This document shows positions 5,182 to 63,702 of a stretch of 64,000 nt of DNA, one piece after another. Each line of letters opens with the position of its first letter. Position 1 is the first letter of the stretch. The position numbers were made by a program, and so were the translations under genes. This DNA comes from a bacterium (GTDB lineage Bacteria > Patescibacteriota > Minisyncoccia > JACQLN01), in NCBI GenBank assembly GCA_030697795.1, contig JAUYOV010000004.1, positions 11,831 through 75,830 on the forward strand, written 5' to 3'. The notes under the pieces are model-generated. The model was not told where the DNA came from. It made no database searches and was given only the letters and a program-made list of their open reading frames with translations.

Positions 5182-5191
5182 ATATTAATAA

Positions 5192-5273
5192 ATATATCAT
5201 CCCGAGTAGCATCATGGAGAAGACTATTTATATAAATAAAGAGGCTCCATGTCGTCTGCGAGGGGTGATATAT
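5192..5273. repeat. Copy A of the ~80-nt intergenic hairpin element, a candidate REP-doublet (REPIN-like; core CCGAGCAGCATTATGGAGAAGACT...AGGCTCCATATCGTCTGCGAGG)
   Basis: One of 4 copies sharing a ~60-nt core (about 80-90% identity by eye), with terminal inverted arms (ATATATCATCCC/GGGTGATATAT) that covary between copies. Confidence 0.8.
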
Positions 5274-5289
5274 TTACGCCAATAAACAC

Positions 5290-8267: not shown

Positions 8268-8354
8268 CAATCGCATCATTCCGAGCAGCATTATGGAGAA
8301 GACTAAATTATAAATAAAGAGGCTCCATATCGTCTGCGAGGAGTGATGCGATTG
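8268..8354. repeat. Copy B of the ~80-nt hairpin element
   Basis: Same core; terminal arms CAATCGCATCA/TGATGCGATTG. Confidence 0.8.
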
Positions 8355-9691: not shown

Positions 9692-9713
9692 GGTAATGGT
9701 AAAAAATTTAAAA

Positions 9714-9793
9714 AACATTGTCCCGAGCAGCATTATGGAGAAGACTATTTTATAAAATAAAGAGGCTCTATATCGTCTGCGAGGGATAATGTT
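9714..9793. repeat. Copy C of the ~80-nt hairpin element; fills the whole adk-map spacer
   Basis: Same core; arms AACATTGTCCC/GGGATAATGTT. Confidence 0.8.
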
Positions 9794-9795
9794 TT

Positions 9796-10362
9796 TTATA
9801 ACCCCAGTACCTGTTTAATTCGCAAATGAATTTCCTCTATACTACCCATACCATCAACCTTAATCAACCTATTCGATTTTTCGTAATATTCTATAGCTGG
9901 CATTGCATCGGTATTAAACCATTCCAAACGATGACGAATTGATTCTTCGGTATCATCTTTGCGTCCGCGTTTTAAAAGCCTTGTTACTGCTTCGTCTTCT
10001 GTAATATCTATTAAAACAACTTTAATATCTACTCTACCCAACCAACTTAAAACTTCGTCTATTTCTTTGGCTTCATCTAAACGACGAGGTGAGCCGTCAA
10101 AAATTATATTTTCTCCATCTTTTAATTTATAAACTAGTTCCTTCTGCCATAAAAAAGCGGCAATCCACTCTGGGGGCAGACCACCAGAATCCACAACTTC
10201 TTTAACTTTTTTACCAGCTAAAGTCTCTTCTTTTTCTAATAAACGAAAAAGATCGCCGGCGTAAATATAAAGACAGGGTTCTATAAGCTTTTTTAAAAGC
10301 TTAACCTGCGTGCCCTTACCCGACCCCGATCTGCCTAAAACGATTATGGTTTTACTAGACAT
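9796..10362 (-). CDS. adk: Adenylate kinase
   Basis: GRSGSGKGTQ P-loop and DGSPRRLDEA; start taken at MSSKT. Confidence 0.8.
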   Translation of the reverse strand: MSSKTIIVLGRSGSGKGTQVKLLKKLIEPCLYIYAGDLFRLLEKEETLAGKKVKEVVDSGGLPPEWIAAFLWQKELVYKLKDGENIIFDGSPRRLDEAKEIDEVLSWLGRVDIKVVLIDITEDEAVTRLLKRGRKDDTEESIRHRLEWFNTDAMPAIEYYEKSNRLIKVDGMGSIEEIHLRIKQVLGL

Positions 10363-18173: not shown

Positions 18174-18995
18174 TCAGTTGGTGCCGACCAACTCGGCCTC
18201 TTCTTCTGCTTCGAGATGGCCATTGCCGACGGGATCACCATCAACCCCGATCTCGCCTTCAGCGAGGTCTTCGACCACCTCGGCAGTGGTATTGCTGTCG
18301 ACGAGGCCTTTGACAACCCCGATCCCACCGAAGTTGATGTTCACCAGCAGGGCTTTCACTCCGAAACACACGGAGACGAAGTCCCTACCGGTTTCGGTCG
18401 GAGGCTCGAAACCGATGTGGTCGAGAACACTGCGAAAGTCCTCTTCCACGAATTTCCCCGCGCCTTTGAAGACGAAAGTGAGAAGATTCCTCACCACACT
18501 TCCTCCGCCCTGCATCTGGAGCGCATTCGCGAGCCAGACGACGGAGGGGAGTATTAACCCCACGCGGGTTGCCATCTTGAGCGTCTTGATGGCGTCGTCG
18601 CCGAGACCATGCCTCTTGAGTCCCGCCATTTCCATGCTCTCGTCTTGGATCCGCTCTCTCCGCGCTTTTTGCGTGGCATCATCACGGCTATACCGCGCAC
18701 AGCCGTTATGATCGAGGTAGCACGTAATCCAGCACTCGAGCTGGTGACCACCACTTCCTTCCTTGTAGCGGAAGATCTGGCCGGGAGCGAGAACCATTCC
18801 ACTGGCTTTCGCCTGAGTGTAGAGGAAAGTCAAAATCTTATCTCCCGGACAAAGAACACCGTACCCTCCAGTCTCTTCGTCTCTCAGGACCATGACCTCC
18901 TCTTTTCCGATGGCCGTCTGGCGCATATGCACGAACTGCTTGCGCTCGTTCGCAACATCCGCCTGGCGAACTATCTTGTTCGTCTTGGCACTCAT
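18174..18995 (-). CDS. Compositionally foreign (GC ~57%) orphan protein of 273 aa; start at second Met
   Basis: Abrupt GC jump confined to this ORF. Perfect SD AAGGAGG sits 8 nt upstream of the ATG at 18993-18995. Plus-strand ORFs here are high-GC artefacts. Confidence 0.6.
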   Translation of the reverse strand: MSAKTNKIVRQADVANERKQFVHMRQTAIGKEEVMVLRDEETGGYGVLCPGDKILTFLYTQAKASGMVLAPGQIFRYKEGSGGHQLECWITCYLDHNGCARYSRDDATQKARRERIQDESMEMAGLKRHGLGDDAIKTLKMATRVGLILPSVVWLANALQMQGGGSVVRNLLTFVFKGAGKFVEEDFRSVLDHIGFEPPTETGRDFVSVCFGVKALLVNINFGGIGVVKGLVDSNTTAEVVEDLAEGEIGVDGDPVGNGHLEAEEEAELVGTN

Positions 18996-19079
18996 AGCAA
19001 AAACCTCCTTATTGAAAAACCCCTGAATCGCGACCGTCATAGGCCGTCGCCGCCTATATTAAGAACAATTATGTTTATA

Positions 19080-19135
19080 AGTATAGTCTATATCATAACT
19101 CTTGTCAAGAGCCACCCTTAAAATCTCAAGGGTGG
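19080..19135 (-). promoter_or_regulatory. Conserved hairpin (CCACCCTTAAAATCTCAAGGGTGG) plus TTGACA-N18-TATACT promoter upstream of the GC-rich gene
   Basis: The same element recurs upstream of the second GC-rich gene (35935-35990). Confidence 0.5.
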
Positions 19136-22633: not shown

Positions 22634-22791
22634 ACTTACTAAATTTCGAAATTCGAATATCGAAATCCGAAACCCTACTTCGCTAAAGCTTCGTAGGGCA
22701 CAGCAATATCACTTATTTGGATTTGCTTGCCCGCCGTAGTTTTAACAGAGGCGGGTTTCGAATTTCTGATTTCGTGCTTCGAATTTTATTT

Positions 22792-23653: not shown

Positions 23654-26044
23654 TTAGGAAAAATTTTCTTTGTTTTCCTCTTCTGTGTGTATATCTATAG
23701 CTTCTGGTGGAACTTCTGATTTTACTAAAACCTCTCTAGGTTTAGCCCCTTCACCGGGACCAATCATGCCTTGAGCTTCTAGAATATCGAGTAATCTTGC
23801 GGCGCGGGCGTAGCCGACTCTTAATCGTCTCTGGAGTAAAGAAGCCGAAGCTTTACCAGCCTGCATAATAGCTTCTTTGGCTTGGAGTAAAAGTTCATCT
23901 TCGTCACTAGAATCCATTTTATCAAAACTTACACCGGTAAGTATTGGTCTATGATCTGAGACAGCTTTTTCCAAACCAAGCGCTTCTTCTGGATTAGCAT
24001 CAGGCGCGTCTTCGGGTAGATTAGATCTTATAAACGAAACAACTTTTTTAACTTCTTTTTCCGAAACAAAAGTGCCTTGAATACGTTTGGGCTTGGGCGA
24101 ATCAGAAGTTACAAAAAGCATATCGCCCATGCCTAAAAGTTTTTCGGCGCCAGCCGAATCTATAATTGTCCGTGAATCTATTTGCGAAGCCACCGCAAAA
24201 GCTATGCGCGTGGTAATGTTAGCTTTAATTAAACCCGTAATAACTTCTACCGAGGGCCGCTGTGTGGCTAAAACCAAATGTATGCCCACCGCCCGCGCCA
24301 TCTGCGCTAAACGCACTACTGTAGCTTCTATTTCACGCCCGTAAGTAGACATTAAGTCGGCCAGTTCATCTATAATGATAACCAAATAAGGCATTAAATC
24401 GTCGCCTTTTTTAGCATCAACTTGAGAATTAAAACCGCCAATATCTCTAACTTTTTTTTCGGAAAGCAGGCTATATCTTCTTTCCATTTCTGAAGTCGCC
24501 CATTTTAAAGCCGACACCGCTTTTTTAGGCTCTACTATAACTGGGGTTAAAAGATGCGGAATACCATTATACAAAGTTAATTCAACTCTTTTAGGATCAA
24601 TCATTATAAAGCGTAAAATTTCTGGCGAATGTTGATACAGCAAATTAACAATTAACGAATTTATGGCTACGCTTTTACCCGAACCCGTGGCGCCCGCAAT
24701 AAGCAGATGAGGCATTCTGGTTAAAGCCGACCACATCGACCGGCCAGAAACATCTTTGCCTAAACCAATATTTAAAAAGTTTTTATGCTCCGAAGCCTCA
24801 AAACCCTGAAGCAAAGCTTTTAAACGCACCACCATAGATTTTTGATTGGGTATTTCTATGCCCACTAAAGATTTTCCCGGAATCGGCGCTTCTATTCTTA
24901 AAGATTCTCCGCCTAGGGCTAAAGATAAATCTTTTTGCAAAGCTAATATGCTAGCCAGTTTGACTCCAGTGGCTGGTTTTAAAGTAAACTGGGTTACCGC
25001 AGGGCCAATATTAACTTCCGACATTTCTACCGGAATATTAAAATTCTCTAAAGTTTTCTGAATAATTATGGCATTGCCCTTAATGTCGCCCGTCACCGGC
25101 ATAGAGCCTTCGTCTTCTAATAAATCTAATGGTGGAAATTTATAGTTAACGGAAAGTGGCAACACACTAAATCCGCTCGCCATATTTTCTTGTTTCTTTT
25201 TTGAAACCTCATCTGACTTGGCCATTACTGACGTACCTTGAGGAGAATTTATAGTGACAGTGTCTTCAGCCGGTTTGGGCGCTTCAACTTTTTTAGCGGT
25301 TTGAGGTAGTTTAGCTTTGCTGGCTAACGTTGCAATTTTAGTTACTAAACCTTTTTCTAAAACTAATTTTTTTTCTGGAATCATTTCGCCATTTTCGTCC
25401 GCCTTAAAAACAAATTTTTCTTTTATTTGATCTTTCAAAGGCAAACGAAAAACAATCAACATAGCCGAAAAGAAAAACGCCACAAAAAATATTAAAGAAC
25501 CCCAAAAACCAAACATCTGCCTAAACGGCCAGCCAAAATAATAACCCATTTTACCGCCAGCCTGATTTTGCGAAAATATTTCCATCAAGCCCAAAAAACT
25601 TAAAATTAGAACACTGCCCCCGATTATAGTGGAACCTAATATTTTTTTCTTGTCGGAAGTTAAAATAAAAAACGACATTAAAAACATCGTTAAAGGCACA
25701 AAGAAACTACCGGAACCAAACATATAATCGGCACCGGCTGTAATGGCTTCGGAAAAAGATCCCGACAAGCCAAAGAAAGCTAAGGTAGTTACCAAAGCCA
25801 CAGCCAGCAAAAGAACGCCCACTACGCTTCTTTTAACGCTTGATTCTAAATGGAGCCAAGAAGTTGTTCTTTTTGGCTTTTTTACTTGAGATTTTTTAAG
25901 ATTTTTAATATCCTCCTTTTCTTTTTCAGCAGGCATTAGGTTTAATCTATTACTAGAAAATAATAACATACAAAAAAGCCAAATAACAACAACGTTTTTC
26001 AGGAAGGGCGGTCCTTCCGATAGATTTCCTGCTATTTTTGGCAA
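23654..26044 (-). CDS. ftsK: DNA translocase FtsK/SpoIIIE; true start downstream of the ORF-track start, whose first codons overlap a REP
   Basis: GATGSGKS Walker A, C-terminal gamma wHTH domain, N-terminal TM segments. Confidence 0.9.
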   Translation of the reverse strand: MPKIAGNLSEGPPFLKNVVVIWLFCMLLFSSNRLNLMPAEKEKEDIKNLKKSQVKKPKRTTSWLHLESSVKRSVVGVLLLAVALVTTLAFFGLSGSFSEAITAGADYMFGSGSFFVPLTMFLMSFFILTSDKKKILGSTIIGGSVLILSFLGLMEIFSQNQAGGKMGYYFGWPFRQMFGFWGSLIFFVAFFFSAMLIVFRLPLKDQIKEKFVFKADENGEMIPEKKLVLEKGLVTKIATLASKAKLPQTAKKVEAPKPAEDTVTINSPQGTSVMAKSDEVSKKKQENMASGFSVLPLSVNYKFPPLDLLEDEGSMPVTGDIKGNAIIIQKTLENFNIPVEMSEVNIGPAVTQFTLKPATGVKLASILALQKDLSLALGGESLRIEAPIPGKSLVGIEIPNQKSMVVRLKALLQGFEASEHKNFLNIGLGKDVSGRSMWSALTRMPHLLIAGATGSGKSVAINSLIVNLLYQHSPEILRFIMIDPKRVELTLYNGIPHLLTPVIVEPKKAVSALKWATSEMERRYSLLSEKKVRDIGGFNSQVDAKKGDDLMPYLVIIIDELADLMSTYGREIEATVVRLAQMARAVGIHLVLATQRPSVEVITGLIKANITTRIAFAVASQIDSRTIIDSAGAEKLLGMGDMLFVTSDSPKPKRIQGTFVSEKEVKKVVSFIRSNLPEDAPDANPEEALGLEKAVSDHRPILTGVSFDKMDSSDEDELLLQAKEAIMQAGKASASLLQRRLRVGYARAARLLDILEAQGMIGPGEGAKPREVLVKSEVPPEAIDIHTEEENKENFS
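26000..26032. repeat. REP1 palindrome CAGGAAGGGCGGTCCTTCCGATAGATTTCCTGC at the 3' end of RAYT-1
   Basis: Further copies at 26526-26542 (inside RAYT-1), 26735-26750, 59691-59722; related sequence inside the helicase CDS at 12909-12941. Confidence 0.8.
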
Positions 26045-26706
26045 TCTTTATAGGAAAGCCAATCAAGAATAAAATCATCAAAGTCCTTTACACCGTCGAA
26101 ATAATCTGGAAAAGCTTTTTTGTTGATAATTTTTTGCTCTAATCTTTGAACACCTACATAATCAAGATAACTGGAATAATTATAACCATTTAAAAAATTT
26201 TGGGCCGCTAATTTATTTTTAATACCAGTTTCTTTCCAGTTAGGTTCAATCAACTTAATAGAATTTAAGTGTGTATAGGCAAAAATATATTTCAGATATT
26301 CATCTCTTTCAATATGTTTTGCTTGAAACCTTCCCTGAAATAAAGAACCGCTACGATCATGTCTTTTATTGAAATACATGGAATAACCGGTGGATACTTT
26401 TCCCATAAATTTAGAGAGTCCACCTTCTACAGTTTCTCTTGCAAGTAAATGGAAATGATTCGGCATTAATACATGTGCGCCTAAAGCAGTAATATCATCG
26501 CCAGTATTTACATCAAAAATATCTGGGAAGGACCGCCCTTCCAAAAGAAGCTCATTGATATCTACACGGTCATTGTTATTACAAAGATAAAGGAGCATCA
26601 AAAAACGTCTATATTCGCCTGTAGATTCAAATATAGTCCTCTTATCCACACCTCGATTGTAGATATGATAATATTCCCCTACAGAGAAAGTGAATTTACG
26701 TTGCAT
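26032..26706 (-). CDS. REP-associated tyrosine transposase (RAYT; IS200-like HuH Y1 transposase), copy 1
   Basis: GEYYHIYNRGV, HuH motif LMPNHFHLL, catalytic-Tyr helix region; flanked by REP1 palindromes. Confidence 0.7.
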   Translation of the reverse strand: MQRKFTFSVGEYYHIYNRGVDKRTIFESTGEYRRFLMLLYLCNNNDRVDINELLLEGRSFPDIFDVNTGDDITALGAHVLMPNHFHLLARETVEGGLSKFMGKVSTGYSMYFNKRHDRSGSLFQGRFQAKHIERDEYLKYIFAYTHLNSIKLIEPNWKETGIKNKLAAQNFLNGYNYSSYLDYVGVQRLEQKIINKKAFPDYFDGVKDFDDFILDWLSYKDCQK

Positions 26707-26840: not shown

Positions 26841-26918
26841 GTCGGGGGTAGCTCAATTGGTCAGAGCGGCTGACTGTGGATCAGACTGTGTCGGTTCAAA
26901 CCCGGCTCCCCGGCACCA
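26841..26918 (+). tRNA. tRNA-His (anticodon GTG) with G-1:C73
   Basis: Manual cloverleaf: G-1, acceptor TCGGGGG/TCCCCGG, D-arm GCTC/GAGC, anticodon loop CTGTGGA, T-arm GTCGG-TTCAAAC-CCGGC. Confidence 0.7.
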
Positions 26919-37969: not shown

Positions 37970-38058
37970 GCAGAAATATTATCTTGAGCAGCATTGTGGA
38001 GAAGACTATTTATATAATAAAGAGGCTCCACATCGTCTGCGAGAGATAATGTTTCTGC
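37970..38058. repeat. Copy D of the ~80-nt hairpin element
   Basis: Same core; arms GCAGAAATATTATCT/AGATAATGTTTCTGC. Confidence 0.8.
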
Positions 38059-51155: not shown

Positions 51156-51635
51156 TTACTTTTCCTTTTCTTTAGAATCTTCTTCGGAAGCCGGGACTGA
51201 AAGCTCAAACTTGAAAAGATCAGAAAAATAAAAAATAGCTACTGTTATAGCCGTCCAAAAACAAACATTGTAAGGATTTGCCTCATATCTAAACATATAA
51301 AAGCCCCCACAAATAATCGGCGTTACTATCGTAAGTGTATAAAAAATACAGATCAAAAACCATGATCGATTCTTCATATCCAAAACATCTATATTTTTCT
51401 TTTCCATATGGCGAGTAGCAAGAACAAGTAAAGGTACAAATGGTGTTACAATAATACTGGCAAAAAACATTGGAATTTTTTCCAAGTCAAATGATCTTGT
51501 TTTGCTTGATGTAGTTACTTTAACAGAAAAAATAAATTCGATTACATAAGAAGAATGGAAAGTGCAAACTATACATCCGACCACATAAAGAAGAAATATT
51601 ACCAAGCACAACCACTCCCATACTTCTGAATACAT
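51156..51635 (-). CDS. Hypothetical polytopic membrane protein
   Basis: ORF only; own terminator at 51120-51155. Confidence 0.4.
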   Translation of the reverse strand: MYSEVWEWLCLVIFLLYVVGCIVCTFHSSYVIEFIFSVKVTTSSKTRSFDLEKIPMFFASIIVTPFVPLLVLATRHMEKKNIDVLDMKNRSWFLICIFYTLTIVTPIICGGFYMFRYEANPYNVCFWTAITVAIFYFSDLFKFELSVPASEEDSKEKEK

Positions 51636-51721
51636 TATGAGTCCTCCTTTTTGGGTAAAGGGTAAAGGATTTTAAATGAACCAATGGTATATTATACCAA
51701 TGCTGTTATTTTGTCAAATTA

Positions 51722-52690
51722 CTTGTAATGTCTCATATCTTATGCATAGGTTTTAGTTAGTATTTGAGCCATCTTTTGAGCAGGGGTTAAACCCTGTAAA
51801 CCTAGATGTGGACGATGGTTGATAAACTTGTCAGTGTAGGTTTTTAAGGAGCTATTCAAGGTGGTTAGAGACTGATTTAAGGATACTTTTCTCCAGAGTT
51901 CTTCGTCAATGGTTCTAATGAATCTCTCTACTATGGAATTGTCTCTAGGTTTTCTGATTCTTGAATAACGATGCAGAATCTTTAACTTGTTTAATTCTTG
52001 AACAAACTCTTTCTGAAACTCGGGACCATTATCTGTTTGAATCATCCCTACTTTAAAAGGTAATCTAGTTAAAGCTGATCGTAAAGCTCGGCTGGCTGAT
52101 GCCATAGAAAGTTTTTCTGTAACAATACAGACTGGATATATATCTGGTAGCCACATCCACGAAAACATACTGGTATCTTCTAGATTGATTTTTAACCATT
52201 AGATGCTTGGTATCTAACAAAACTAGCTTGCCGTCCTCTTGGGGTCTAAAGATGGGAGGTAGTTGTCTGTGTCTCCTTTGGTATCTATGTTTTGATTTAA
52301 TCAGCTGGTTTCTTTTAAGGACGCGGTAGGTTGTTATGTTGGTAATGCTGATACCTTGAGCCTTCAGGTAAAGAACTATCTTTTGATGACACCAACCCTC
52401 GGTTTTTCTTAAATGAATAATCTTTTCTTCTAACTCCAGAGAGGTCTGCTTGGGATGGGCACTTAAAGGCATCGGTCGAAAACTTTGAAGAGTGGGATAC
52501 ATACCCAACCAGCGGCTGATGGTAGATTGGTTGAAACCAAAGTATCTACTGATTCTCGACTGCGACCAACCTAACTCTTTAAGTTGCCAAACTTGGCGTC
52601 TGACTGCGATAATGTTTTTGTGAATGTGCATATATGGTGAGTGTATCATTTGACTACTCACCTATGCATTTTGAATGAAACATTACAATT
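51722..52690 (-). mobile_element. IS481-family-like insertion sequence (~970 bp) with imperfect ~30-bp terminal inverted repeats (TTGTAATGTYTCAT...ATGCATAGGT)
   Basis: Left IR 51722-51752 matches the reverse complement of right IR 52655-52690; encodes an HTH plus DDE (rve) transposase. Confidence 0.7.
51740..52661 (-). pseudogene. IS481-like DDE transposase split into two overlapping ORFs by a frameshift in a T5/A5 homopolymer (~52112-52116)
   Basis: The ORFs 52065..52661 (HTH plus start of rve) and 51740..52168 (DNGPEF...rve core) are related by a +1 shift. IS481 transposases are normally single-ORF. Confidence 0.55.
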
Positions 52691-54445: not shown

Positions 54446-56167
54446 TTAACTGGGTTTTATATCCGAAAGCAGCGAACGTAAACCTTCTATATCGGCTGGA
54501 GGTTCTTTGGTTTTATTTTTCTTTTTAAACGGACGTGCTTGATTGCCCGCGTGGTTAATCACTCCACCCCTTTGTAAAGCGTCTTGCAAACTGGTTGGCT
54601 TAAATTGTTCCGAGATAACTTGCTGCTTAACTTCGTTTAATTTATATAAATGATTCTTGCAATATATGGGGCGCACACCATCGGGTTTAAATGGCACCCA
54701 AACTTTTTCGCCCCCTTCCCAACAAATGGCCTCGAATAAATCTTTATCACTTTTTGGTTTAGCTGAAGATGCCGCGGGCGAAGCTTTGGGAGAACTCTGA
54801 AAAGCCCTATCGTCGTAATCATCTTCCATCCTAGAATCTTTTTTATTAGACGTCATTAACTCTCTAACGCCCGCCCAATCCGCTATTTCATTTTCTACTT
54901 TTTCGCGCGGCGTGCCATAAGTTTCCCTAGAGTGCTTAATAATTTCGTCACGACTACTTACAACTGGTTTGGGATAGGGCGCCAATGTTGTAGCCGAAAA
55001 AGCCCGAGAGGCTACGCCATCTATCATAAGTTTTAAATAAATATTGTACTTAGCCAAATTAACAATGTCAGTGGCCACAAATTCTGGCATAAACTCTTTT
55101 TCTAAAAACTCGGCATCTTCCGCGCCTATTCTAAAAGAAACCAGTGTGCCCACGTTGCCAAATATAGCGTCGCGCACCGCCGTGCTCTTGGAGCCAGCTA
55201 CGTTCTGCACCAATTGAGCAATGTATTGATTGGCCAAAATAAGAGCTAAGCGGTACTTGCGGGCTTCGGAAAGAATATTGCCAAAAGATTCAGTAGCAAA
55301 ATTTTGAAACTCGTCCACATATAAATAAAAATCTCGGCGGTCTTCTTCGGGAATATCTACCCGGCTCATAGCGGCCAGTTGCAATTTAGTAACCAATAAC
55401 CCGCCTAAAAGTTTGGAATTATCTTCGCCAATTTTACCTTTAGAAAGATTCATTATTAAAATCTTGCCTTCGTCCATTACTTTACGCATATCTATAGCGC
55501 TATTGACCTGTCCCACAATATTGCGAATAACCGCGGCCGAAAGAAACTGTCCCACTTTATTTTGAATAGCCGGCGTGGCTTCGGCGGCAAAGCGATCAGT
55601 GTATTTAGCAAATTCATCTACCCAAAAAGATTTAACCATAGGGTCCTTAATTTGATCCACCACTTGCTTTCTGTAATCTTTATTGGACAGCATGCGCATA
55701 ATGCCTAAAACCGTAGCGCCGGGGTAATCTAATAAAGCTAAAATTGTATTATTTAAAATATATTCCATTCTAGCCGACCAAACATCGGGCCAGATTTTTT
55801 TAAATACACCCATCAAACCCGAAGCCACCAAATGTTTTTTCTCGGCCTCCACGTTTTCTATAGCGTTAAAAGCGATGGGCATATCTAAATCGGAAGGGTC
55901 AAAGTAAATTACGTCTTTGATGCGTTCCGGTGGAATAAATTCCAAAATTTTATCGGCCGAATCGCCGTGAGGGTCTATAAAGCCTAAGCCCTTGCCGTGA
56001 ATAATATCGGAAATAATCATATTTTCCAGCATAGTGGTTTTACCCATACCGGTTTTACCGATTATATAGGTGTGCCTTCTGCGATCATCCAGTTTAATGC
56101 CAAACCGCCGCTTTTCATTGCGGAAATTTGTCTCTGCGAACAAAGTTATCTCATTATTATCATTCAT
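54446..56167 (-). CDS. VirD4/TraG/TrwB-like coupling-protein-family P-loop ATPase (FtsK/HerA superfamily)
   Basis: Walker A IIGKTGMGKTT, Walker B LYVDEFQNF, DPHGD motif. Confidence 0.55.
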   Translation of the reverse strand: MNDNNEITLFAETNFRNEKRRFGIKLDDRRRHTYIIGKTGMGKTTMLENMIISDIIHGKGLGFIDPHGDSADKILEFIPPERIKDVIYFDPSDLDMPIAFNAIENVEAEKKHLVASGLMGVFKKIWPDVWSARMEYILNNTILALLDYPGATVLGIMRMLSNKDYRKQVVDQIKDPMVKSFWVDEFAKYTDRFAAEATPAIQNKVGQFLSAAVIRNIVGQVNSAIDMRKVMDEGKILIMNLSKGKIGEDNSKLLGGLLVTKLQLAAMSRVDIPEEDRRDFYLYVDEFQNFATESFGNILSEARKYRLALILANQYIAQLVQNVAGSKSTAVRDAIFGNVGTLVSFRIGAEDAEFLEKEFMPEFVATDIVNLAKYNIYLKLMIDGVASRAFSATTLAPYPKPVVSSRDEIIKHSRETYGTPREKVENEIADWAGVRELMTSNKKDSRMEDDYDDRAFQSSPKASPAASSAKPKSDKDLFEAICWEGGEKVWVPFKPDGVRPIYCKNHLYKLNEVKQQVISEQFKPTSLQDALQRGGVINHAGNQARPFKKKNKTKEPPADIEGLRSLLSDIKPS

Positions 56168-56203
56168 ATTGATATAGGTCTTATAAGACCTATTAGACTT
56201 ATC

Positions 56204-57520
56204 TTAATAGGAAGGAAGCCCTGCTGGCGGTTCGCCTTTTTTGGCCTGAACCCTAGGCAAACTGGGCGCCATAACCACTCGGCCCGGAAAGTGAAATACC
56301 GTTGCTAATTCTTCTATATTCATAACAGACATAACTTTAGGACGTCCTCTAATTCTATATTGATACAATAACCATTTCTTTTTCTGCGCTTCTTTCATTT
56401 TTTTGAAAGGAAATCTGCCGGCAGTTAAAGTGGCATTATTTCTTTTGATAGCATTCAAATTTTGCGTACTAAATTGGTTAAAACCCGAAGATATATGAAA
56501 AAAATTTGGGATGTAAAAAGCATCCTTAGTAGCTATATATACAACTCTTATAACTGTTTCAAAAGCTACTTTAGCAATTTTTCGCTCAATAGCTTCTATA
56601 ATTTCTTTTTCGCCAGAGGTAAGAAACTGCATTAAAGAATGAGGTTTATCGCTTTTAGGCGTGCCCCATTCAAAAGGTTCAAATTCTGGAGTTTTAAACG
56701 GAGCCTGCACCGCGCCTTTAGCATAGTCGGATAATTCTTTTTTTAATAACGCCAACATATATGAACCCTGCGGCACTTCTTTTTTAGGACGGCCCACCAA
56801 TTTTAAAACTGTTTCCATAGCCAGATTTTTCCAAGTGTCATCTGTTGGCCTTATGGCGATTTGGATCCAGCCCTGTTCACCTTTTTTCAACCGAGTTAAT
56901 GTTTCCGTTATACCAGCTAAAGGGTCAACCAACGCAATATTAGAACCGCCTTCTTTGCTCGTTTCTGTTTTTAATTCAAAATCTTTGTAGGTGCGTATGG
57001 GATAGCCGTCCTCACGGCCCAATCTAAATTCAGAGCCAAAAAGATTATGCGTTTCGTTGGGAATTATCATGGGCACATTGGCTGTATAATCTTCGGCATC
57101 AAAAATTTCGGCCTGGGGATATTGAGCATAAATAGCCGCTTCTACTAAATTTCTAAATTGATTTAAGGTGCGAATATAAAAATGCAGTTCGCCTTCGAAA
57201 GAAGTTATTTCTAAACTAAACCATTCTTGGACGCGGCCCTCCACATAACGCTTCCACCAACTACCTTTAAAAAGAGTGCTTTGAATAATTGCCAAAACCT
57301 GCTCCATGGCTAGCGGGCTTTTTTCCACATCTGGCGGCAAGCGGAACTCCAGCATCTCCCATTTAAACTTTTTCATAGTACGAATGCGGATATAATACAA
57401 CCACGCGTCCCATAAAAATGGCGCCAAAAGAATAGGCAAGAAAACCCAGCCCCATAGCCAAATATGGTGCCAGACTATTCCCAAAACATCGAACATTAAA
57501 CTAAACGGATTTTGGATCAT
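56204..57520 (-). CDS. Hypothetical membrane protein (N-terminal TM hairpin), putative partner of the ATPase
   Basis: ORF only. Confidence 0.4.
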   Translation of the reverse strand: MIQNPFSLMFDVLGIVWHHIWLWGWVFLPILLAPFLWDAWLYYIRIRTMKKFKWEMLEFRLPPDVEKSPLAMEQVLAIIQSTLFKGSWWKRYVEGRVQEWFSLEITSFEGELHFYIRTLNQFRNLVEAAIYAQYPQAEIFDAEDYTANVPMIIPNETHNLFGSEFRLGREDGYPIRTYKDFELKTETSKEGGSNIALVDPLAGITETLTRLKKGEQGWIQIAIRPTDDTWKNLAMETVLKLVGRPKKEVPQGSYMLALLKKELSDYAKGAVQAPFKTPEFEPFEWGTPKSDKPHSLMQFLTSGEKEIIEAIERKIAKVAFETVIRVVYIATKDAFYIPNFFHISSGFNQFSTQNLNAIKRNNATLTAGRFPFKKMKEAQKKKWLLYQYRIRGRPKVMSVMNIEELATVFHFPGRVVMAPSLPRVQAKKGEPPAGLPSY

Positions 57521-57704
57521 CTTATTATATATTTTATCATTTTACCCCGTGTAATCCAAAATAAGTTATGCAGTATAAAATAGAGTGATATTATCCAGAA
57601 AATTAAGCGGAATGAACAAGTACGTAAGAAAGGATTTTACGGGACTTTGTAATCTTAATAAAACAAAAAGAGCGAAGCGGTTTTACGCTTCGCTCTAACA
57701 CGAA

Positions 57705-59579
57705 CTACTTCTTTTCCAAAACCTTGACCATGACCGAGCCAAAACCTTCCGGCAAAACCCAATCTAGTTTTTTCTCCAGACTAGTCGTATCGTTGTAGAT
57801 AGTGAGTTCTTCCAGAACAGGCAATAACATCGTCGACACCAACCCCGTTGAGTCTGACTTGGTTGAGTCTATTTTAGCCGCCTCAGAAATAGCGGTCAAC
57901 AAACTATCAACCGATACTTCTGTTGGCAAAGGCTGGCTAAAAGCAAGGATGACTTTCAAAATGGCTTTGGGTTCAGGACCATTCATGAAGTCAAAAACAT
58001 CTTGCAGGTTTCCAAACTCAACCGAACTGGGAGTGTCGTCATAATCAGCATCTTTGCCCAAAGAATACAGTGAGCCCACGGTCAAACTGTAGATGCCGGC
58101 CGCAAATGTATCCGGCACAGCTACTATCACATTGAAATCAGCATCCTTACTTCCTCCGACCCTTAAGCTAAATTTGACCGACAGGTCGCTACCGGCCGTG
58201 ACCACACTATCTGCTTCAAGCGCGATCGGCATAGCAAACAAAGCATCGTCCACTACATCCACGCTCATTTGGATACTACGGAACTCCAAATTGGCGTATC
58301 CGTTGGCCACGGAGTTCAAATAGACGCTAAAGACAAAATCGAACAGTGCCTCACCCAACACGTCTATCACCCCAGAATTGGGAAAAGCATAGATTCTCTC
58401 GCGCTCAACCTTTAAATCGGAATTAGTGAAGCTCGCCTCTGTTCGGACTTTCAGGCTCTTGCCGGTGGAATTATCCAACCGGTTGGCCAATGGCGACAAG
58501 AGCGTAACTCCTGTCATTATAGCCTGATTGAATAAGCCAAAACCGGACAGTTGCGTTCGAGCCATTCGGTGATTCATGCTAAAGGCTTTTTCACCAAAAA
58601 TGGAAGCGCTGAAGACCAGCGGAATCATATCGGGCTCTTGGCCAATCACACCTCCGACTCCGGGCATGCGATCATAAAGAATTGTTCCTAGAACTTTGTT
58701 GCCCAGAGTGGCAAATTTGAAAGGCGAGTTGAGATTACTTATCTCGCCCAGAACCTCGGCGCCGATTATCGGGATCGAAGTCTGACCATTGCCTAAAAAA
58801 GGATGGCCGAAACCGAGAATATTGTTACCCTCAACATAGGTTGCCGTTCCCACGGCTCCGATATTTACTTCATCGCCCGTAAATAAGGCAGCAGCCAAGG
58901 AACTGCCGGGTTTAAATTCTTGTTCGATTTTGCCGCCAACTCCAGCAGAACCGGATGCCGCGAGCAAATTGAGATGACTCTCGTCGCCCAATTTGTCGGC
59001 ATACTTTCGCATAGCCGCATCAAGCAGACGGTTGTTCACACCCGACATCAATAGGGGCAAAGCCAATGGTCTAACAATGTTTCCATTCCAAACCACCGGC
59101 TTACTGGATCTGATTTCCGGGTCGATGATGCCTTTTTGCATCCACTCAATTGGGGTTGCAAAAAAATAGTAAGGTGAGCTGTTCTCCGAATCAAAGCCCA
59201 TGGACAAAGCACCAATCACGCCGTCTTTTGTAAAAACTGGTGAACCCGACTGGCCACGAACCGCAGGACGCGAGGATTTGAACATGACCACTGGCATCGG
59301 TGGGACAAAATCGTCCACCACCGAAACCAATGCAACTTCAAAGTCTTCCATCTCGCCAAAAACAGAAGTTCGCACATACATCTTTGTTCCTGCGGGCATA
59401 GCCCGAACTGAATCCAATGGCACAATCTTGGTGAGATCCCAAGAAGAAGTATCCATATTGTTCGTTTCTACAACCACACCCTCATCTTCTGCGTTCGAGG
59501 ACAACACTGTTTTGCTTTTGCTATCACAGGCCAAAAGGCCAAGAGTGATAGCGAAAAGCCAAGTCAAATGATGAAACAT
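57705..59579 (-). CDS. Lipoprotein with a trypsin-like/SpoIVB-like serine protease motif
   Basis: Lipobox LGLLAC; RGQSGSPVF (GxSGSP serine-protease signature); GC ~45%. Confidence 0.45.
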   Translation of the reverse strand: MFHHLTWLFAITLGLLACDSKSKTVLSSNAEDEGVVVETNNMDTSSWDLTKIVPLDSVRAMPAGTKMYVRTSVFGEMEDFEVALVSVVDDFVPPMPVVMFKSSRPAVRGQSGSPVFTKDGVIGALSMGFDSENSSPYYFFATPIEWMQKGIIDPEIRSSKPVVWNGNIVRPLALPLLMSGVNNRLLDAAMRKYADKLGDESHLNLLAASGSAGVGGKIEQEFKPGSSLAAALFTGDEVNIGAVGTATYVEGNNILGFGHPFLGNGQTSIPIIGAEVLGEISNLNSPFKFATLGNKVLGTILYDRMPGVGGVIGQEPDMIPLVFSASIFGEKAFSMNHRMARTQLSGFGLFNQAIMTGVTLLSPLANRLDNSTGKSLKVRTEASFTNSDLKVERERIYAFPNSGVIDVLGEALFDFVFSVYLNSVANGYANLEFRSIQMSVDVVDDALFAMPIALEADSVVTAGSDLSVKFSLRVGGSKDADFNVIVAVPDTFAAGIYSLTVGSLYSLGKDADYDDTPSSVEFGNLQDVFDFMNGPEPKAILKVILAFSQPLPTEVSVDSLLTAISEAAKIDSTKSDSTGLVSTMLLPVLEELTIYNDTTSLEKKLDWVLPEGFGSVMVKVLEKK

Positions 59580-59690
59580 AAAAACCTCCGCGGATTAAGG
59601 TAAAAAAATCAAAGAACACGAATATGCATTAAAGCAAATATTTGACTAGATGTCAAATAAGTTTGTTTTTATCAGACTTTCTTAAAATAA

Positions 59691-59722
59691 CAGGAAGGGC
59701 GGTCCTTCCGATAAATTTCCTA
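59691..59722. repeat. Distant copy of REP1 (CAGGAAGGGCGGTCCTTCCGATAAATTTCCTAG)
   Basis: About 33 kb from RAYT-1. Confidence 0.75.
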
Positions 59723-59740
59723 GGTTTTTAGCAAATAAAA

Positions 59741-59768
59741 ATCGTCCCCGTTTTATTGGGGACGAAAT
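59741..59768. terminator. Terminator hairpin TCGTCCCCGTTTTATTGGGGACGA
   Basis: 8-bp stem, flanked by A and T runs. Confidence 0.5.
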
Positions 59769-61352: not shown

Positions 61353-62240
61353 CTATTTATGCTTGGAGCCCGCCCAAAGACTTAATATGGGACTTGCCAA
61401 AAATATAGAGGAATAAGTTCCAAAAAAAACCCCTATAAGCAAGACAAGTGATAGATTTTTAGTGCTGGCCCCACCTAAAAAGTAACTGGCCAAAAGCACT
61501 AAAAACACCGTGAAAGAAGTATTTATAGAACGGGCTAAAGTTTGGTTAACGCTGTTATTTATAGTTGTAGAAAAGTTTTCGGCAGGATTTTTTCTTAAGT
61601 TTTCTCTGATTCTATCAAAAACCACAATGGTATCGTGAACCGAAAAACCTAAAATAGTTAAAATGGCCGTAACAAAATAAGCATCAACTTCTATACCGTA
61701 AAAATGCCCCAGAACAGCAAAGAGGCCCATAGGAATCGTAACATCATGCACCAGCGCAACAATGGCTATAACGCCATACTTCCAAGAAGAAACTGGTTTT
61801 GATACTTTTCTAAAAGCCCAAGCAATATAGGCCACTATCAAGACTAAAACGTAAGCGAGCGCCTTAACAGATTTTTTTTGAAGTTCTTTACCTATAACCG
61901 GTCCAATGGAATCAAATTTTTTCTCTTCTATGGGAAAAGCATCATTAAGATCCCGCTTCATAGCCTCGTGCGTATTTTCATTGACCGATCTAAATTTTAA
62001 AATTAAGCCCTTATCGCCGGTAGGCTGTAAAACAGAACTTTCTAATTTATAAAAAGATAAAGACTTTAAAACATCTTCATTGGCAGGGCGTGTATCTTTA
62101 AATTCAATTTCCCACTGTGAACCGCCCGTAAAATCAATACCAAATTTTAAACCCCAAAACAGCACAGGCAAAATACTAACGACAACCAATATTGCCGAAA
62201 TGGTTAAATATATTTTTCTGTTGGGAATTACAGCGAGCAT
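61353..62240 (-). CDS. secF: Protein translocase subunit SecF
   Basis: FGIDFTGG motif, 6 TM. Confidence 0.9.
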   Translation of the reverse strand: MLAVIPNRKIYLTISAILVVVSILPVLFWGLKFGIDFTGGSQWEIEFKDTRPANEDVLKSLSFYKLESSVLQPTGDKGLILKFRSVNENTHEAMKRDLNDAFPIEEKKFDSIGPVIGKELQKKSVKALAYVLVLIVAYIAWAFRKVSKPVSSWKYGVIAIVALVHDVTIPMGLFAVLGHFYGIEVDAYFVTAILTILGFSVHDTIVVFDRIRENLRKNPAENFSTTINNSVNQTLARSINTSFTVFLVLLASYFLGGASTKNLSLVLLIGVFFGTYSSIFLASPILSLWAGSKHK

Positions 62241-62373: not shown

Positions 62374-63702
62374 TTATTGTTTCCACAAAAACTTTACCCT
62401 CTCTAATCTTGTGCCTTCAAAAACTCTTAAAAATGTTCTGGTTAAAGTAATAGCAGAAAACATTGAAATTAAAATACCAATAATAAGCGTTAAGGCAAAA
62501 CCCCTAACCAAACTGGAACCAAAAGTATAAAGCACACCAGCCGTAATTAAACTAGAAACATTAGAATCGCGAATAGATGTCCAGGCTCTGGCAAAACCCT
62601 CTTTGACAGCAAGTCCAAAGGCCTTGCCGCTTCTTAATTCTTCTTTCATCCTTTCAAAGATTAAAACATTAGCATCCACCGCCATACCAATAGAAAGAAT
62701 AAAACCCGTAATGCCTGCCAAAGTTAGGGTAACTGGAATCAATTTAAATATAGCCAGAGAAATTATGGTATAAATTATTAAAGCCAAAACCGCCATAATA
62801 CCAGCCAAGCGATACCATATAATCATAAACAGCACCACTAAAACAAAACCTATAATACCTGCCACCAAACTCTTTTCCAAAGAAGCCTGGCCCAGCGTGG
62901 CGCCTACGCTTTGCTGTGAAATTAATTCTATAGGCACAGGCAAAGCGCCAGAATTTAAACGCTCCACCAAAGTTTTAGCTTCATCTATAGAAAAATTACC
63001 AGTTATTTGAGCGCTACCGTCTAAAATTTCCTGCTGAACCACTGGAGCCGATATGGGCAAACCATCTAAATAGATAGCTAACTGCTTACCCACGTTCTTT
63101 TTGGTTATTTCGGCAAAAAGTTGCTTGCCAATATCGTCAAATTCTAATAAAACTTCTGGACGAGTTGTTTGAGAATCAAAAGCCAAGCTAGCTTTTTTAA
63201 TATAACGGCCACTTAAACCGGAAGAAACAAAGTAAGGATCGGCTTGGGACAAATCTGGCTCTTTACCGCCTAGCAAATCAAGAGCTTTTTTTACTTCTTC
63301 TTCGCTACGCTGTTCTTTAAATTCTAAAAATGGAGTTTGGCCAATCAGTTTTATGGCTTGATTGATATCTTTTACGCCCGCGAGTTCCACAATCAGCCTC
63401 CAATTTTCGCCCGAATGATTTACAGTTATGGCAGGCTCCGAAACTCCAAAAAAATTAACTCGGCGTTCCACCACATCTTTTAAGCCATTCATATAAGAAT
63501 CTTTCTCGCTTTCTTCTACTTGAGAAAGATCAGCCTGATAAACCAAATGCGTGCCCCCCAAAAGATCTAAACCCAAACGAAATGGTTTTAGAAAAAAGTT
63601 TGGATAAAAACTATCAGTATCATTATTACCTGCTGGATAAATAAAAAGACCAGCTATAATAGCTAAAACTAATATAAGAGGTATAACAATTCTCGGAGAC
63701 AT
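62374..63702 (-). CDS. secD: Protein translocase subunit SecD
   Basis: LGLDLLGGTHLVYQ motif, RND-like TM bundle. Confidence 0.9.
   Translation of the reverse strand: MSPRIVIPLILVLAIIAGLFIYPAGNNDTDSFYPNFFLKPFRLGLDLLGGTHLVYQADLSQVEESEKDSYMNGLKDVVERRVNFFGVSEPAITVNHSGENWRLIVELAGVKDINQAIKLIGQTPFLEFKEQRSEEEVKKALDLLGGKEPDLSQADPYFVSSGLSGRYIKKASLAFDSQTTRPEVLLEFDDIGKQLFAEITKKNVGKQLAIYLDGLPISAPVVQQEILDGSAQITGNFSIDEAKTLVERLNSGALPVPIELISQQSVGATLGQASLEKSLVAGIIGFVLVVLFMIIWYRLAGIMAVLALIIYTIISLAIFKLIPVTLTLAGITGFILSIGMAVDANVLIFERMKEELRSGKAFGLAVKEGFARAWTSIRDSNVSSLITAGVLYTFGSSLVRGFALTLIIGILISMFSAITLTRTFLRVFEGTRLERVKFLWKQ

Follow-up and report, generated by a model that had tools for sequence, protein, structure and literature searches.

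The stretch of DNA analysed here (the window; 64,000 nt of contig JAUYOV010000004.1) is chromosomal DNA of a bacterium of the Patescibacteria (candidate phyla radiation, CPR), and an NCBI metagenome-assembled genome has proteins identical to those studied here, encoded on a contig of 278 kb. Three minus-strand open reading frames (ORFs) coding for proteins of 573, 438 and 624 aa were found at the positions (Table 1) given in a preliminary description of this DNA, which had read them as one module consisting of a VirD4/TraG-like ATPase, a transmembrane (TM) partner and a lipoprotein serine protease. The other genes of the window have housekeeping functions, with RpoD, DnaG, RecA, MreB, FtsK, RecJ, PGK, aminoacyl-tRNA synthetases and SecDF among their products. 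The analysis below identifies the ATPase as a member of the type IV coupling protein (T4CP) family and the 438-aa protein, which belongs to the family DUF8128, as its conserved partner. The pair is a chromosomal, vertically inherited core system of Patescibacteria, to which the neighbouring protease very probably bears no relation.

The translation of the ATPase contains a Walker A motif (GKTGMGKT, residues 37-44), a DPHGD motif (residues 65-69) and a Walker B motif (LYVDEF, residues 282-287), all three as previously noted. Most of these motif residues were invariant in an alignment of 40 homologues, with Walker A residues G37, K38, T39, G40, G42 and K43 present in 40/40. The protein passed the Pfam families TrwB_AAD_bind (44.3 bits, E = 1.4e-11; cut-off 20.5 bits) and TraG-D_C (26.4 bits, E = 7e-6; cut-off 22 bits), and scored under the cut-offs for FtsK_SpoIIIE (16 compared to 24 bits) and for DUF87/HerA. 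Its NCBIfam matches were to conjugative coupling proteins throughout, each far short of the equivalog cut-off, and the VirB4_CagE model TIGR00929 gave 14.4 bits compared to a cut-off of 643. The best PDB relatives by sequence were TrwB of R388 (E = 2.6e-6) and DotL (E = 7.7e-4). An AlphaFold model with a predicted local distance difference test score (pLDDT) of 79.8 displayed an all-alpha insertion between Walker A and Walker B (residues ~108-232) and matched TrwB (E = 1e-11), Cag-beta (2e-11), DotL (5e-11), HerA (7e-11) and the C-terminal domain of VirB4 (3.6e-9) in Foldseek; TrwB chains topped the list, with a target-normalised TM-score of 0.60-0.64 for this predicted model. The same affinity was seen in a sample of 80 species-level loci carrying DUF8128, the ORFs of which were also searched with the proteins of the window. 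TrwB of R388 (NC_028464) as a plain phmmer query matched 68 related ATPase ORFs in these loci, compared to none for TrwK and only 10, weakly, for TrsE. The ATPase is thus of the VirD4/TrwB type by both family and fold, as first proposed, and its best match is TrwB and not a protein of the HerA or FtsK clades.

Unlike TrwB, the protein is predicted to be soluble. No N-terminal transmembrane domain was found in the translation, which starts MNDNNEITLFAETNFRNEKRRFG, the model opens with beta strands, and the alignment to TrwB-deltaN70 (a form of TrwB with the first 70 residues removed) begins at residue 27 of the query. A disordered linker near the C-terminus leads into a zinc-finger tail, recognised by Pfam zf_Tbcl_2 (4.8e-7) and NCBIfam TIGR04272 (2.6e-7). 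The family consensus of this finger is CxxC-x17-CxxC, with C482 and C503 invariant. The copy in the window deviates in both knuckles, which read C-W-E-G (the second Cys replaced) and C-K-N-H (His as the last ligand), so zinc binding may be weakened in this protein. Across lineages in which DUF8128 is ~39% identical, the ATPase is ~60% identical. Since it is highly conserved with every catalytic residue invariant, the ATPase is an intact protein and not a decaying remnant.

The assignment of the 438-aa protein to DUF8128 was taken from precomputed annotation and not from a local Pfam scan. PF26449.1 is recorded for an identical protein (P0001), for 120 of 120 listed homologues and for the corresponding genes of four related loci (L001, L004, L005 and L008). 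The family comprises 3,735 clusters at 50% identity and is carried by at least 591 species-representative genomes, and a full-text literature search returned no paper mentioning DUF8128. Nearly all of the 80 loci were labelled as Patescibacteria lineages. Seven carried the labels Gammaproteobacteria, Bdellovibrionales, Binatia or 'Patescibacteria group' (L048, L057, L073, L082, L085, L087, L088); each has retained Sec genes or a gene for a protein with sigma-70 region 4 and HARE-HTH domains (sigma4/HARE-HTH) by DUF8128, and five of them also an adjoining ATPase gene.

DUF8128 has a hydrophobic N-terminal stretch of ~40 residues (8-46) with Kyte-Doolittle windows of 1.2-1.6 over residues 8-30, falling below zero past residue 33, and with a cluster of Arg and Lys residues directly after it. 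The AlphaFold model (pLDDT 85, predicted TM-score 0.77) consists of one long helix (residues 5-51), an alpha/beta body and a disordered tail. The N-terminal TM hairpin suggested in the preliminary description therefore stands as a hydrophobic segment, and a hairpin is possible, although the model shows a single helix. The tail, while disordered, is conserved and ends in KKGEPPxGLP, with P431, P432, L435 and P436 invariant. Because the basic cluster follows the hydrophobic stretch, the positive-inside rule would place the alpha/beta body in the cytoplasm. When the model was compared to PDB chains in Foldseek, a check the preliminary description had suggested, the only matches with E < 1e-3 were to TrwK, the VirB4 protein of R388; TrwK chains filled places 1 to 13, and all subsequent matches had E >= 0.04. 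A search of PDB sequences with a DUF8128 profile gave no match. With a low TM-score and empty profile comparisons with TrwK and TrsD (see below), we treat the VirB4 likeness of the predicted fold as a lead, short of an established fact.

The two genes are closely linked. An ATPase gene lay directly 3' of DUF8128 on the same strand in 67 of the 80 loci, or 67 of the 77 that are informative (three are cut by a contig end before the ATPase position), with an estimated median gap of 16 nt, which makes the 438-aa protein a true conserved partner of the ATPase, as had been supposed. A sigma4/HARE-HTH gene preceded DUF8128 directly and on the same strand in 70/80 loci (median gap ~48 nt). SecD and SecF were encoded upstream in 55/80, with SecF abutting DUF8128 in loci that have no sigma4/HARE-HTH gene, and SecA further upstream in 15/80. 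MnmA (30/80) and AlaRS (23/80) were found downstream, and EF-P and ComEC also recurred further out. The pair lies in a conserved block of the order SecD-SecF-(sigma4/HARE-HTH)-DUF8128-ATPase-MnmA, and four loci read gene by gene via Pfam annotation (L001, L004, L005, L008) agreed with this arrangement. In contrast, the peptidase, the 111-aa ORF beside it and a DUF192 gene were each present in 0/80 loci. Conservation of the neighbourhood thus extends to DUF8128 and the ATPase and not to the protease, and by these neighbour counts the conserved unit is (sigma4/HARE-HTH)-DUF8128-ATPase, embedded in a long block of housekeeping synteny.

No genes of a type IV secretion system (T4SS) or relaxase were found within ~8 kb of the unit in the 80 loci. 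Single-sequence phmmer searches over ~8 kb around DUF8128 in the 80 loci gave no matches to TrwC, pGO1 MobA, VirB3, VirB6, VirB8, TrsC, TrsD, TrsF or TrsL, and neither VirB4 nor any other T4SS or relaxase gene was detected in these regions or in the Pfam lists of the four annotated loci. DUF8128-ATPase fusions were absent from the 80 loci and from the best 120 or 150 homologues listed. Two loci have a small gene between DUF8128 and the ATPase. A Portnoybacteria locus (L001) contains a 75-aa ORF there, which is conserved in 0/80 loci, and the closest relative of the window (L008, with DUF8128 88% identical) has a 120-aa gene of the 23S_rRNA_IVP family (L008:9350-9712), showing once more that the operon tolerates small insertions. 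In six loci (L062, L066, L069, L070, L081, L086) a gene for YceG/MltG, an endolytic murein transglycosylase, lies directly 3' of DUF8128, and the ATPase must be encoded elsewhere in these genomes or have been lost. A replacement ATPase was sought in the loci without a T4CP-like gene, and the downstream ORF was found to code for YceG/MltG, Dus or another unrelated protein.

The window ATPase is one of the orphan T4CP homologues of Patescibacteria, having the same NCBI product name and Pfam domains. Such homologues have been reported in 2,918 of 3,035 Patescibacteria genomes (~96%), compared to VirB4 in 2,417; only 148 of 5,713 lie near virB4, with many encoded far from it, and the virB4 loci are themselves found near dnaA/dnaN (Quinonero-Coronel et al., 2025; PMC12102498). 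Those authors noted exaptation of these homologues as a possibility. In Southlakia epibionticum (NZ_CP124550.1) the gene SEML1_0294 encodes a protein with Sigma70_r4 and HARE-HTH domains and is essential, and the next gene, SEML1_0293, encodes a protein of 921 aa with TrwB_AAD_bind at residues 402-719 (Wang et al., 2023; PMC10633639). The sigma4/HARE-HTH gene is thus directly 5' of the ATPase gene there, as it is 5' of the unit studied here. SEML1_0293 was called non-essential, with normalised transposon-sequencing (Tn-seq) reads of 5817, 2940 and 1372 in succession from T0 to T2, compared to flat or rising reads for the neighbouring genes SEML1_0291, SEML1_0292 and SEML1_0295. Tables S1 and S2 of PMC10633639 flag both the SEML1_0293 and the SEML1_0294 family as core and as enriched in Patescibacteria. 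The ~400 residues before the ATPase domain of SEML1_0293 correspond to the size of DUF8128, and the protein is likely a DUF8128-ATPase fusion. The published accounts of the orphan homologues and of S. epibionticum contain neither the DUF8128 partner, nor the split as opposed to apparently fused forms, nor the SecDF-linked synteny.

The ATPase shares with the coupling proteins (VirD4/TrwB/TraD/TraG, Cag-beta, DotL) a P-loop domain, an all-alpha insertion and a DPxGD motif after Walker A. It differs from them by lacking an N-terminal TM domain of its own and having a separate, dedicated membrane partner, by being chromosomal, vertically inherited and highly conserved, by its C-terminal treble-clef zinc finger, and by the lack of relaxase, accessory DNA transfer and replication (Dtr) or mating-pair genes found near it. 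The pair as a whole resembles VirB4 (TrwK)/VirB3 in its combination of a membrane helix, a ~400-aa non-ATPase domain and a ~450-aa ATPase of the same superfamily. It also resembles the split TrsD/TrsE of pGO1, where TrsD, a relative of the VirB4 N-terminal region, is encoded just 5' of the ATPase (PMC12102498). Unlike VirB4, however, its motor is T4CP-like in sequence, and VirB3, VirB6 and VirB8 were not found nearby. FtsK/SpoIIIE and HerA belong to the same additional strand catalytic E (ASCE) superfamily of P-loop proteins, and HerA ranks just behind TrwB by fold, but the ATPase has no NurA-type partner.

Table 1. Annotated features of the DUF8128-ATPase locus, in coordinates of the window.
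Feature	Position	Strand	Basis
Soluble T4CP-family (VirD4/TrwB-like) P-loop ATPase, 573 aa	54446-56167	-	Pfam, PDB sequence search, AlphaFold, Foldseek
C-terminal treble-clef zinc-finger module of the ATPase, aa ~476-506	54650-54742	-	Pfam zf_Tbcl_2, NCBIfam TIGR04272, alignment
Walker A codons of the ATPase, GKTGMGKT (aa 37-44)	56036-56059	-	Translation; family alignment
DUF8128 (PF26449) membrane partner, 438 aa	56204-57520	-	Precomputed PF26449, AlphaFold, Foldseek
Trp-rich hydrophobic membrane segment of DUF8128, aa 8-46, followed by RIRTMKKFK	57383-57499	-	Kyte-Doolittle, model
Terminator-like hairpin, 11 bp, 7 G-C, with T-run; ends the peptidase unit 5' of DUF8128	57669-57696	-	Sequence scan
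Lipoprotein serine peptidase, 624 aa, distantly S55/trypsin-like, Ser-bearing barrel first	57705-59579	-	Alignment, Pfam of relatives, composition
Promoter-like site, TTGACA-17 nt-TTTAAT, TG one base before the second hexamer	59628-59656	-	Read by eye
46-nt two-copy repeat (REP1) with hairpin GGAAGG-ACCG-CCCTTCC	59691-59736		Repeat family D14
Terminator-like hairpin, 8 bp, 6 G-C, with T-run; ends the small ORF	59742-59765	-	Sequence scan
Small ORF, up to 111 aa	59790-60125	-	Weak match (2.2e-5) to same-position ORF in L004
Sigma-70 region 4 + HARE-HTH DNA-binding protein, 343 aa	60193-61224	-	Pfam Sigma70_r4 (2.4e-13), HARE-HTH (2.6e-8)
secF	61353-62240	-	Pfam annotation of equivalent genes in related loci
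secD	62374-63702	-	Pfam annotation of equivalent genes in related loci

The peptidase that separates the sigma4/HARE-HTH gene from DUF8128 in the window is part of a distinct cassette. Compared to the genes of the window (GC 0.386 +/- 0.044), the peptidase gene has a GC content of 0.476 and a third-position GC content (GC3) of 0.51, corresponding to z-scores of 2.1 and 2.4. GC is ordinary for the ATPase (0.415) and DUF8128 (0.399), so the elevation previously ascribed to the whole module belongs essentially to the peptidase gene. A promoter-like site and a strong terminator-like hairpin flank the gene; the promoter scan omits this site, as its rule demands that the second hexamer have A as its second base. 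The repeat and the terminator-like hairpin that had been described upstream of the peptidase are both present, the hairpin reading from 59765 to 59742. The other copy of the repeat (26000-26045; 83% identity) lies upstream of ftsK. Both copies are intergenic and 5' of minus-strand genes (peptidase, ftsK), and the repeat may have a regulatory or terminator-like function. An Rfam scan of the window from 50 to 64 kb gave zero matches to RNA elements.

Only the closest relatives, L004 and L008 (DUF8128 71% and 88% identical, respectively), likewise have the peptidase and the small ORF placed between the sigma4/HARE-HTH gene and DUF8128, and there the position of the small ORF is filled by ORFs of 99 aa and 128 aa. 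Most of the 557 relatives of the peptidase belong to large genomes, and those few that carry a name are Gemmatimonadota. One copy, 50% identical, is found on another contig in the unrelated setting of dnaE and rpmF/nusB/rnc, between which it lies, and a 38%-identical copy lies in a 4.5-Mb genome amid sulfatase genes and further genes of no relation. In L004, the peptidase in the corresponding position (L004:3984-5909) is only ~36-38% identical to that of the window, with flanking genes at 71-83%, and is no closer to the window copy than are copies from large non-CPR genomes. These sequence identities suggest that the gene either evolved rapidly or was replaced in situ by a foreign copy. The peptidase and the small ORF are an independently transcribed, compositionally atypical and recent cassette, inserted in this lineage only. 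With no copy at any of the 80 loci, its own transcription signals, atypical GC and relatives in unrelated contexts, the protease drops out of the module in which it had been placed.

The peptidase itself, to judge from its alignment, looks like a genuine enzyme. The lipobox LLAC is found in MFHHLTWLFAITLGLLAC (read by motif), where Cys18 is shared by at least 90% of relatives, and S111, H259 and D303 are invariant in an alignment of 40 relatives, as is the motif G109-x-S111-G112-S113-P114; the lipoprotein signal and GQSGSP motif reported earlier are thus both well supported. S111, H259 and D303 would be the catalytic residues. The window peptidase scored 11.9 bits for Peptidase_S55, under the cut-off of 25. 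Its relatives passed at 27-34 bits, over profile positions 124-206 of 210 and their own residues ~68-149, so a check against S55 that fails for the window protein succeeds for its relatives over the Ser-bearing part. The GxSGSP serine motif and the invariant His in GFGH (H259) are shared with SpoIVB-type S55/chymotrypsin-fold peptidases. Unlike SpoIVB, only the C-terminal third of the profile matches, at the N-terminus of the peptidase, and Pfam detected no PDZ domain in the window peptidase or four relatives; the C-terminal ~300 aa match no family. His and Asp follow Ser, the reverse of the order in the chymotrypsin fold, and H259 and D303 are 44 residues apart, a spacing comparable to that of His57 and Asp102 in chymotrypsin. 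With the Ser-bearing third of S55 at the N-terminus and His and Asp after it, the sequence suggests a circularly permuted S55/chymotrypsin-like fold.

Several other elements were recorded in the window. A remnant of an insertion sequence (IS; 51156-52661, minus strand) has an rve/rve_3 integrase core and HTH_32/HTH_23 domains across two overlapping, apparently frameshifted ORFs (51740-52168 and 52065-52661), as well as a 159-aa hydrophobic ORF, and sits between a PaaX_M gene and mnmA, two genes that directly or almost directly adjoin each other in L004 and L005. The ftsK gene is directly downstream of an ORF for an IS200-like Y1 transposase (26032-26706; the region 23654-26706 is on the minus strand), with tRNA-His at 26841-26918. 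A strong GC island at 18174-19040 (minus strand) consists of a 288-aa ORF with GC 0.559 (z = +4.0) and GC3 0.67, overlapping plus-strand ORFs at 18178-18711 and 18609-19121; the 288-aa ORF had no Pfam match and the region no Rfam match. An intergenic element of ~60-86 nt, GAGCAGCATTATGGAGAAGACTA...AAAGAGGCTCCAT.TCGTCTGCGAGGG (families D3, D4, D7), occurs at 5190-5275, 8283-8353, 9711-9796 and 37986-38056, with a partial copy at 52597-52619, the copies being 81-91% identical. An AT-rich 47-nt intergenic repeat with the core ATTTCTAATATCTAAAT (families D1, D8) has five copies, at 22636, 30747, 33938, 39078 and 62236, several of them just 3' of minus-strand genes and one by secF.

Given their conserved adjacency, DUF8128 and the ATPase probably act together. 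In the mechanism we propose, DUF8128 would supply the membrane anchor that canonical coupling proteins hold in their own N-terminus, and would also provide a cytoplasmic scaffold with a predicted VirB4-like fold. The ATPase, presumably hexameric like TrwB, would be tethered and organised by DUF8128 at the cytoplasmic membrane, and would spend ATP on moving a polymer at or across it. Ancestrally, the operon is preceded by a gene for the sigma4/HARE-HTH DNA-binding protein. We infer from the data the physical interaction of the two proteins, their hexameric assembly, the substrate and the direction of transport. Overall we lean, by a modest preference, towards a functional unit that is a two-gene operon of DUF8128 and a soluble T4CP-family ATPase, forming a membrane-tethered translocase that works without a T4SS; independence from a T4SS, taken alone, is also somewhat the better supported expectation. 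By analogy, nucleic acid is a tentative candidate for the substrate because of the activity of the relatives TrwB, FtsK and HerA, the zinc-finger tail and the linked helix-turn-helix (HTH) protein.

Several observations weigh against this proposal. The likeness of DUF8128 to VirB4 comes from Foldseek alone, at E = 2.6e-4 with a TM-score of ~0.32 and a root-mean-square deviation of ~10 A; hhalign of the 55-sequence DUF8128 profile against R388 TrwK and pGO1 TrsD gave no match, and all 55 members compared to Pfam at E <= 10 produced scattered noise that lends the likeness no support. The zinc finger is short of one Cys ligand in the window protein, and some family members have no finger at all (e.g., L005, 476 aa). 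The ATPase is non-adjacent in 10 of the 77 informative loci, with YceG there in six, so that co-transcription of DUF8128 and the ATPase is not obligatory. Since the synteny block is long (SecA-SecDF through to MnmA, AlaRS and ComEC), part of the adjacency could reflect inheritance of gene order and not shared function, chiefly for SecDF and the HTH protein. The fused form in S. epibionticum was deduced from published domain coordinates and not from the sequence, and as SEML1_0294 is essential and SEML1_0293 was called non-essential, the HTH protein must serve at least one function independently of the pair.

The pair could alternatively be the missing coupling protein of the Patescibacteria T4SS, encoded apart from it, with DUF8128 replacing the TM domain as an adaptor to VirB4. 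The ATPase has the family and fold of a T4CP, a VirB4-like DUF8128 fold could mediate docking, T4CP genes are often far from virB4 (PMC12102498), and the T4SS cluster of S. epibionticum is without a recognisable coupling protein (PMC10633639). However, genomes with a T4CP (2,918) outnumber those with VirB4 (2,417), only the 148 of 5,713 noted above are near virB4, the neighbourhoods differ (SecDF for the pair compared to dnaA/dnaN for virB4), and the T4SS genes of S. epibionticum are essential while SEML1_0293 was called non-essential. We consider a coupling role for the T4SS rather unlikely on these counts. Less likely still is an accessory motor that works with the Sec machinery in exporting proteins or handling membrane proteins. 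This idea draws its support from synteny only, namely SecDF upstream in 55/80 loci and abutting DUF8128 where the HTH gene is missing, and SecA in 15/80, to which may be added that DotL and Cag-beta, coupling proteins that recruit protein substrates, are among the top fold matches of the ATPase. The same block also holds the unrelated EF-P, MnmA, AlaRS and ComEC, and its order may be inherited; SecDF is not among the listed flanking genes in S. epibionticum (SEML1_0287-0298), and the zinc-finger tail and HTH neighbour point to nucleic acid instead.

Replacement of FtsK/SpoIIIE at the division site, with the HTH protein reading DNA polarity in the manner of the FtsK gamma domain, would exploit the kinship of T4CPs and FtsK as hexameric translocases, and an anchor, a motor and a winged-helix reader would mimic the FtsK architecture. 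The ATPase nevertheless falls under the FtsK_SpoIIIE cut-off, and the window itself encodes a full canonical FtsK (alpha, motor and gamma domains; 796 aa) at 23654-26044, on which ground a substitute for FtsK was rejected as highly improbable. The least probable reading, for which we see hardly any room, is the one in the preliminary description, that of a decaying conjugative or DNA-uptake remnant comprising the ATPase, its membrane partner and a dedicated extracytoplasmic protease. The ATPase family is best known from conjugation and the IS remnant lies nearby (51740-52661), but the catalytic motifs are intact, conservation is very high, the distribution is vertical over at least 591 species, the synteny is that of housekeeping genes, relaxase, mating-pair and other T4SS genes were not found within ~8 kb in the 80 loci, and the protease is absent from 80/80 loci and separate in its transcription signals and composition. 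Anti-phage defence of the MADS type (mad8/HerA) was also considered and rejected; the ATPase matches mad8 at 1.5e-14, a similarity at family level only, the neighbourhood is one of housekeeping genes, and PADLOC gave no match for DUF8128, the peptidase or the small ORF.

A large part of bacterial diversity belongs to the Patescibacteria, which are unable to synthesise nucleotides and have to take up nucleic acids, or parts of them, from hosts. The route of import across their membrane was called unresolved in a 2026 preprint on host-RNA feeding. With that route still open, a role of the DUF8128-ATPase translocase in acquiring host nucleic acids is attractive, if speculative. In its fullest form, the trio would be an ancient, Patescibacteria-specific and T4SS-independent translocase importing DNA or RNA across the cytoplasmic membrane, and the means by which nucleotide-auxotrophic epibionts reach host nucleic acids, its VirB4/VirD4-like motor having been split into a membrane scaffold and an ATPase (and fused in Saccharibacteria). 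We regard this specific version as improbable, though worth stating.

Earlier publications cover the ATPase family and its orphan status in Patescibacteria, and Pfam already lists DUF8128 as a family. Absent from the literature searched are the obligate-looking pairing of DUF8128 with the ATPase, the lead to a VirB4-like fold, and the trio and SecDF context with its likely fusion in Saccharibacteria. A motor present in ~96% of Patescibacteria genomes and conserved like core housekeeping proteins is thereby given a dedicated membrane partner and a fixed genomic context, of which the neighbouring protease should not be counted as a part. The pair is a concrete candidate for nucleic-acid import, and one that is genetically testable because of an apparent orthologue in the tractable S. 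epibionticum. If the proposal is true, a VirD4-like ATPase would be working outside any secretion apparatus, and a partner with a VirB4-like fold would bear on how VirB4 and VirD4 diverged.

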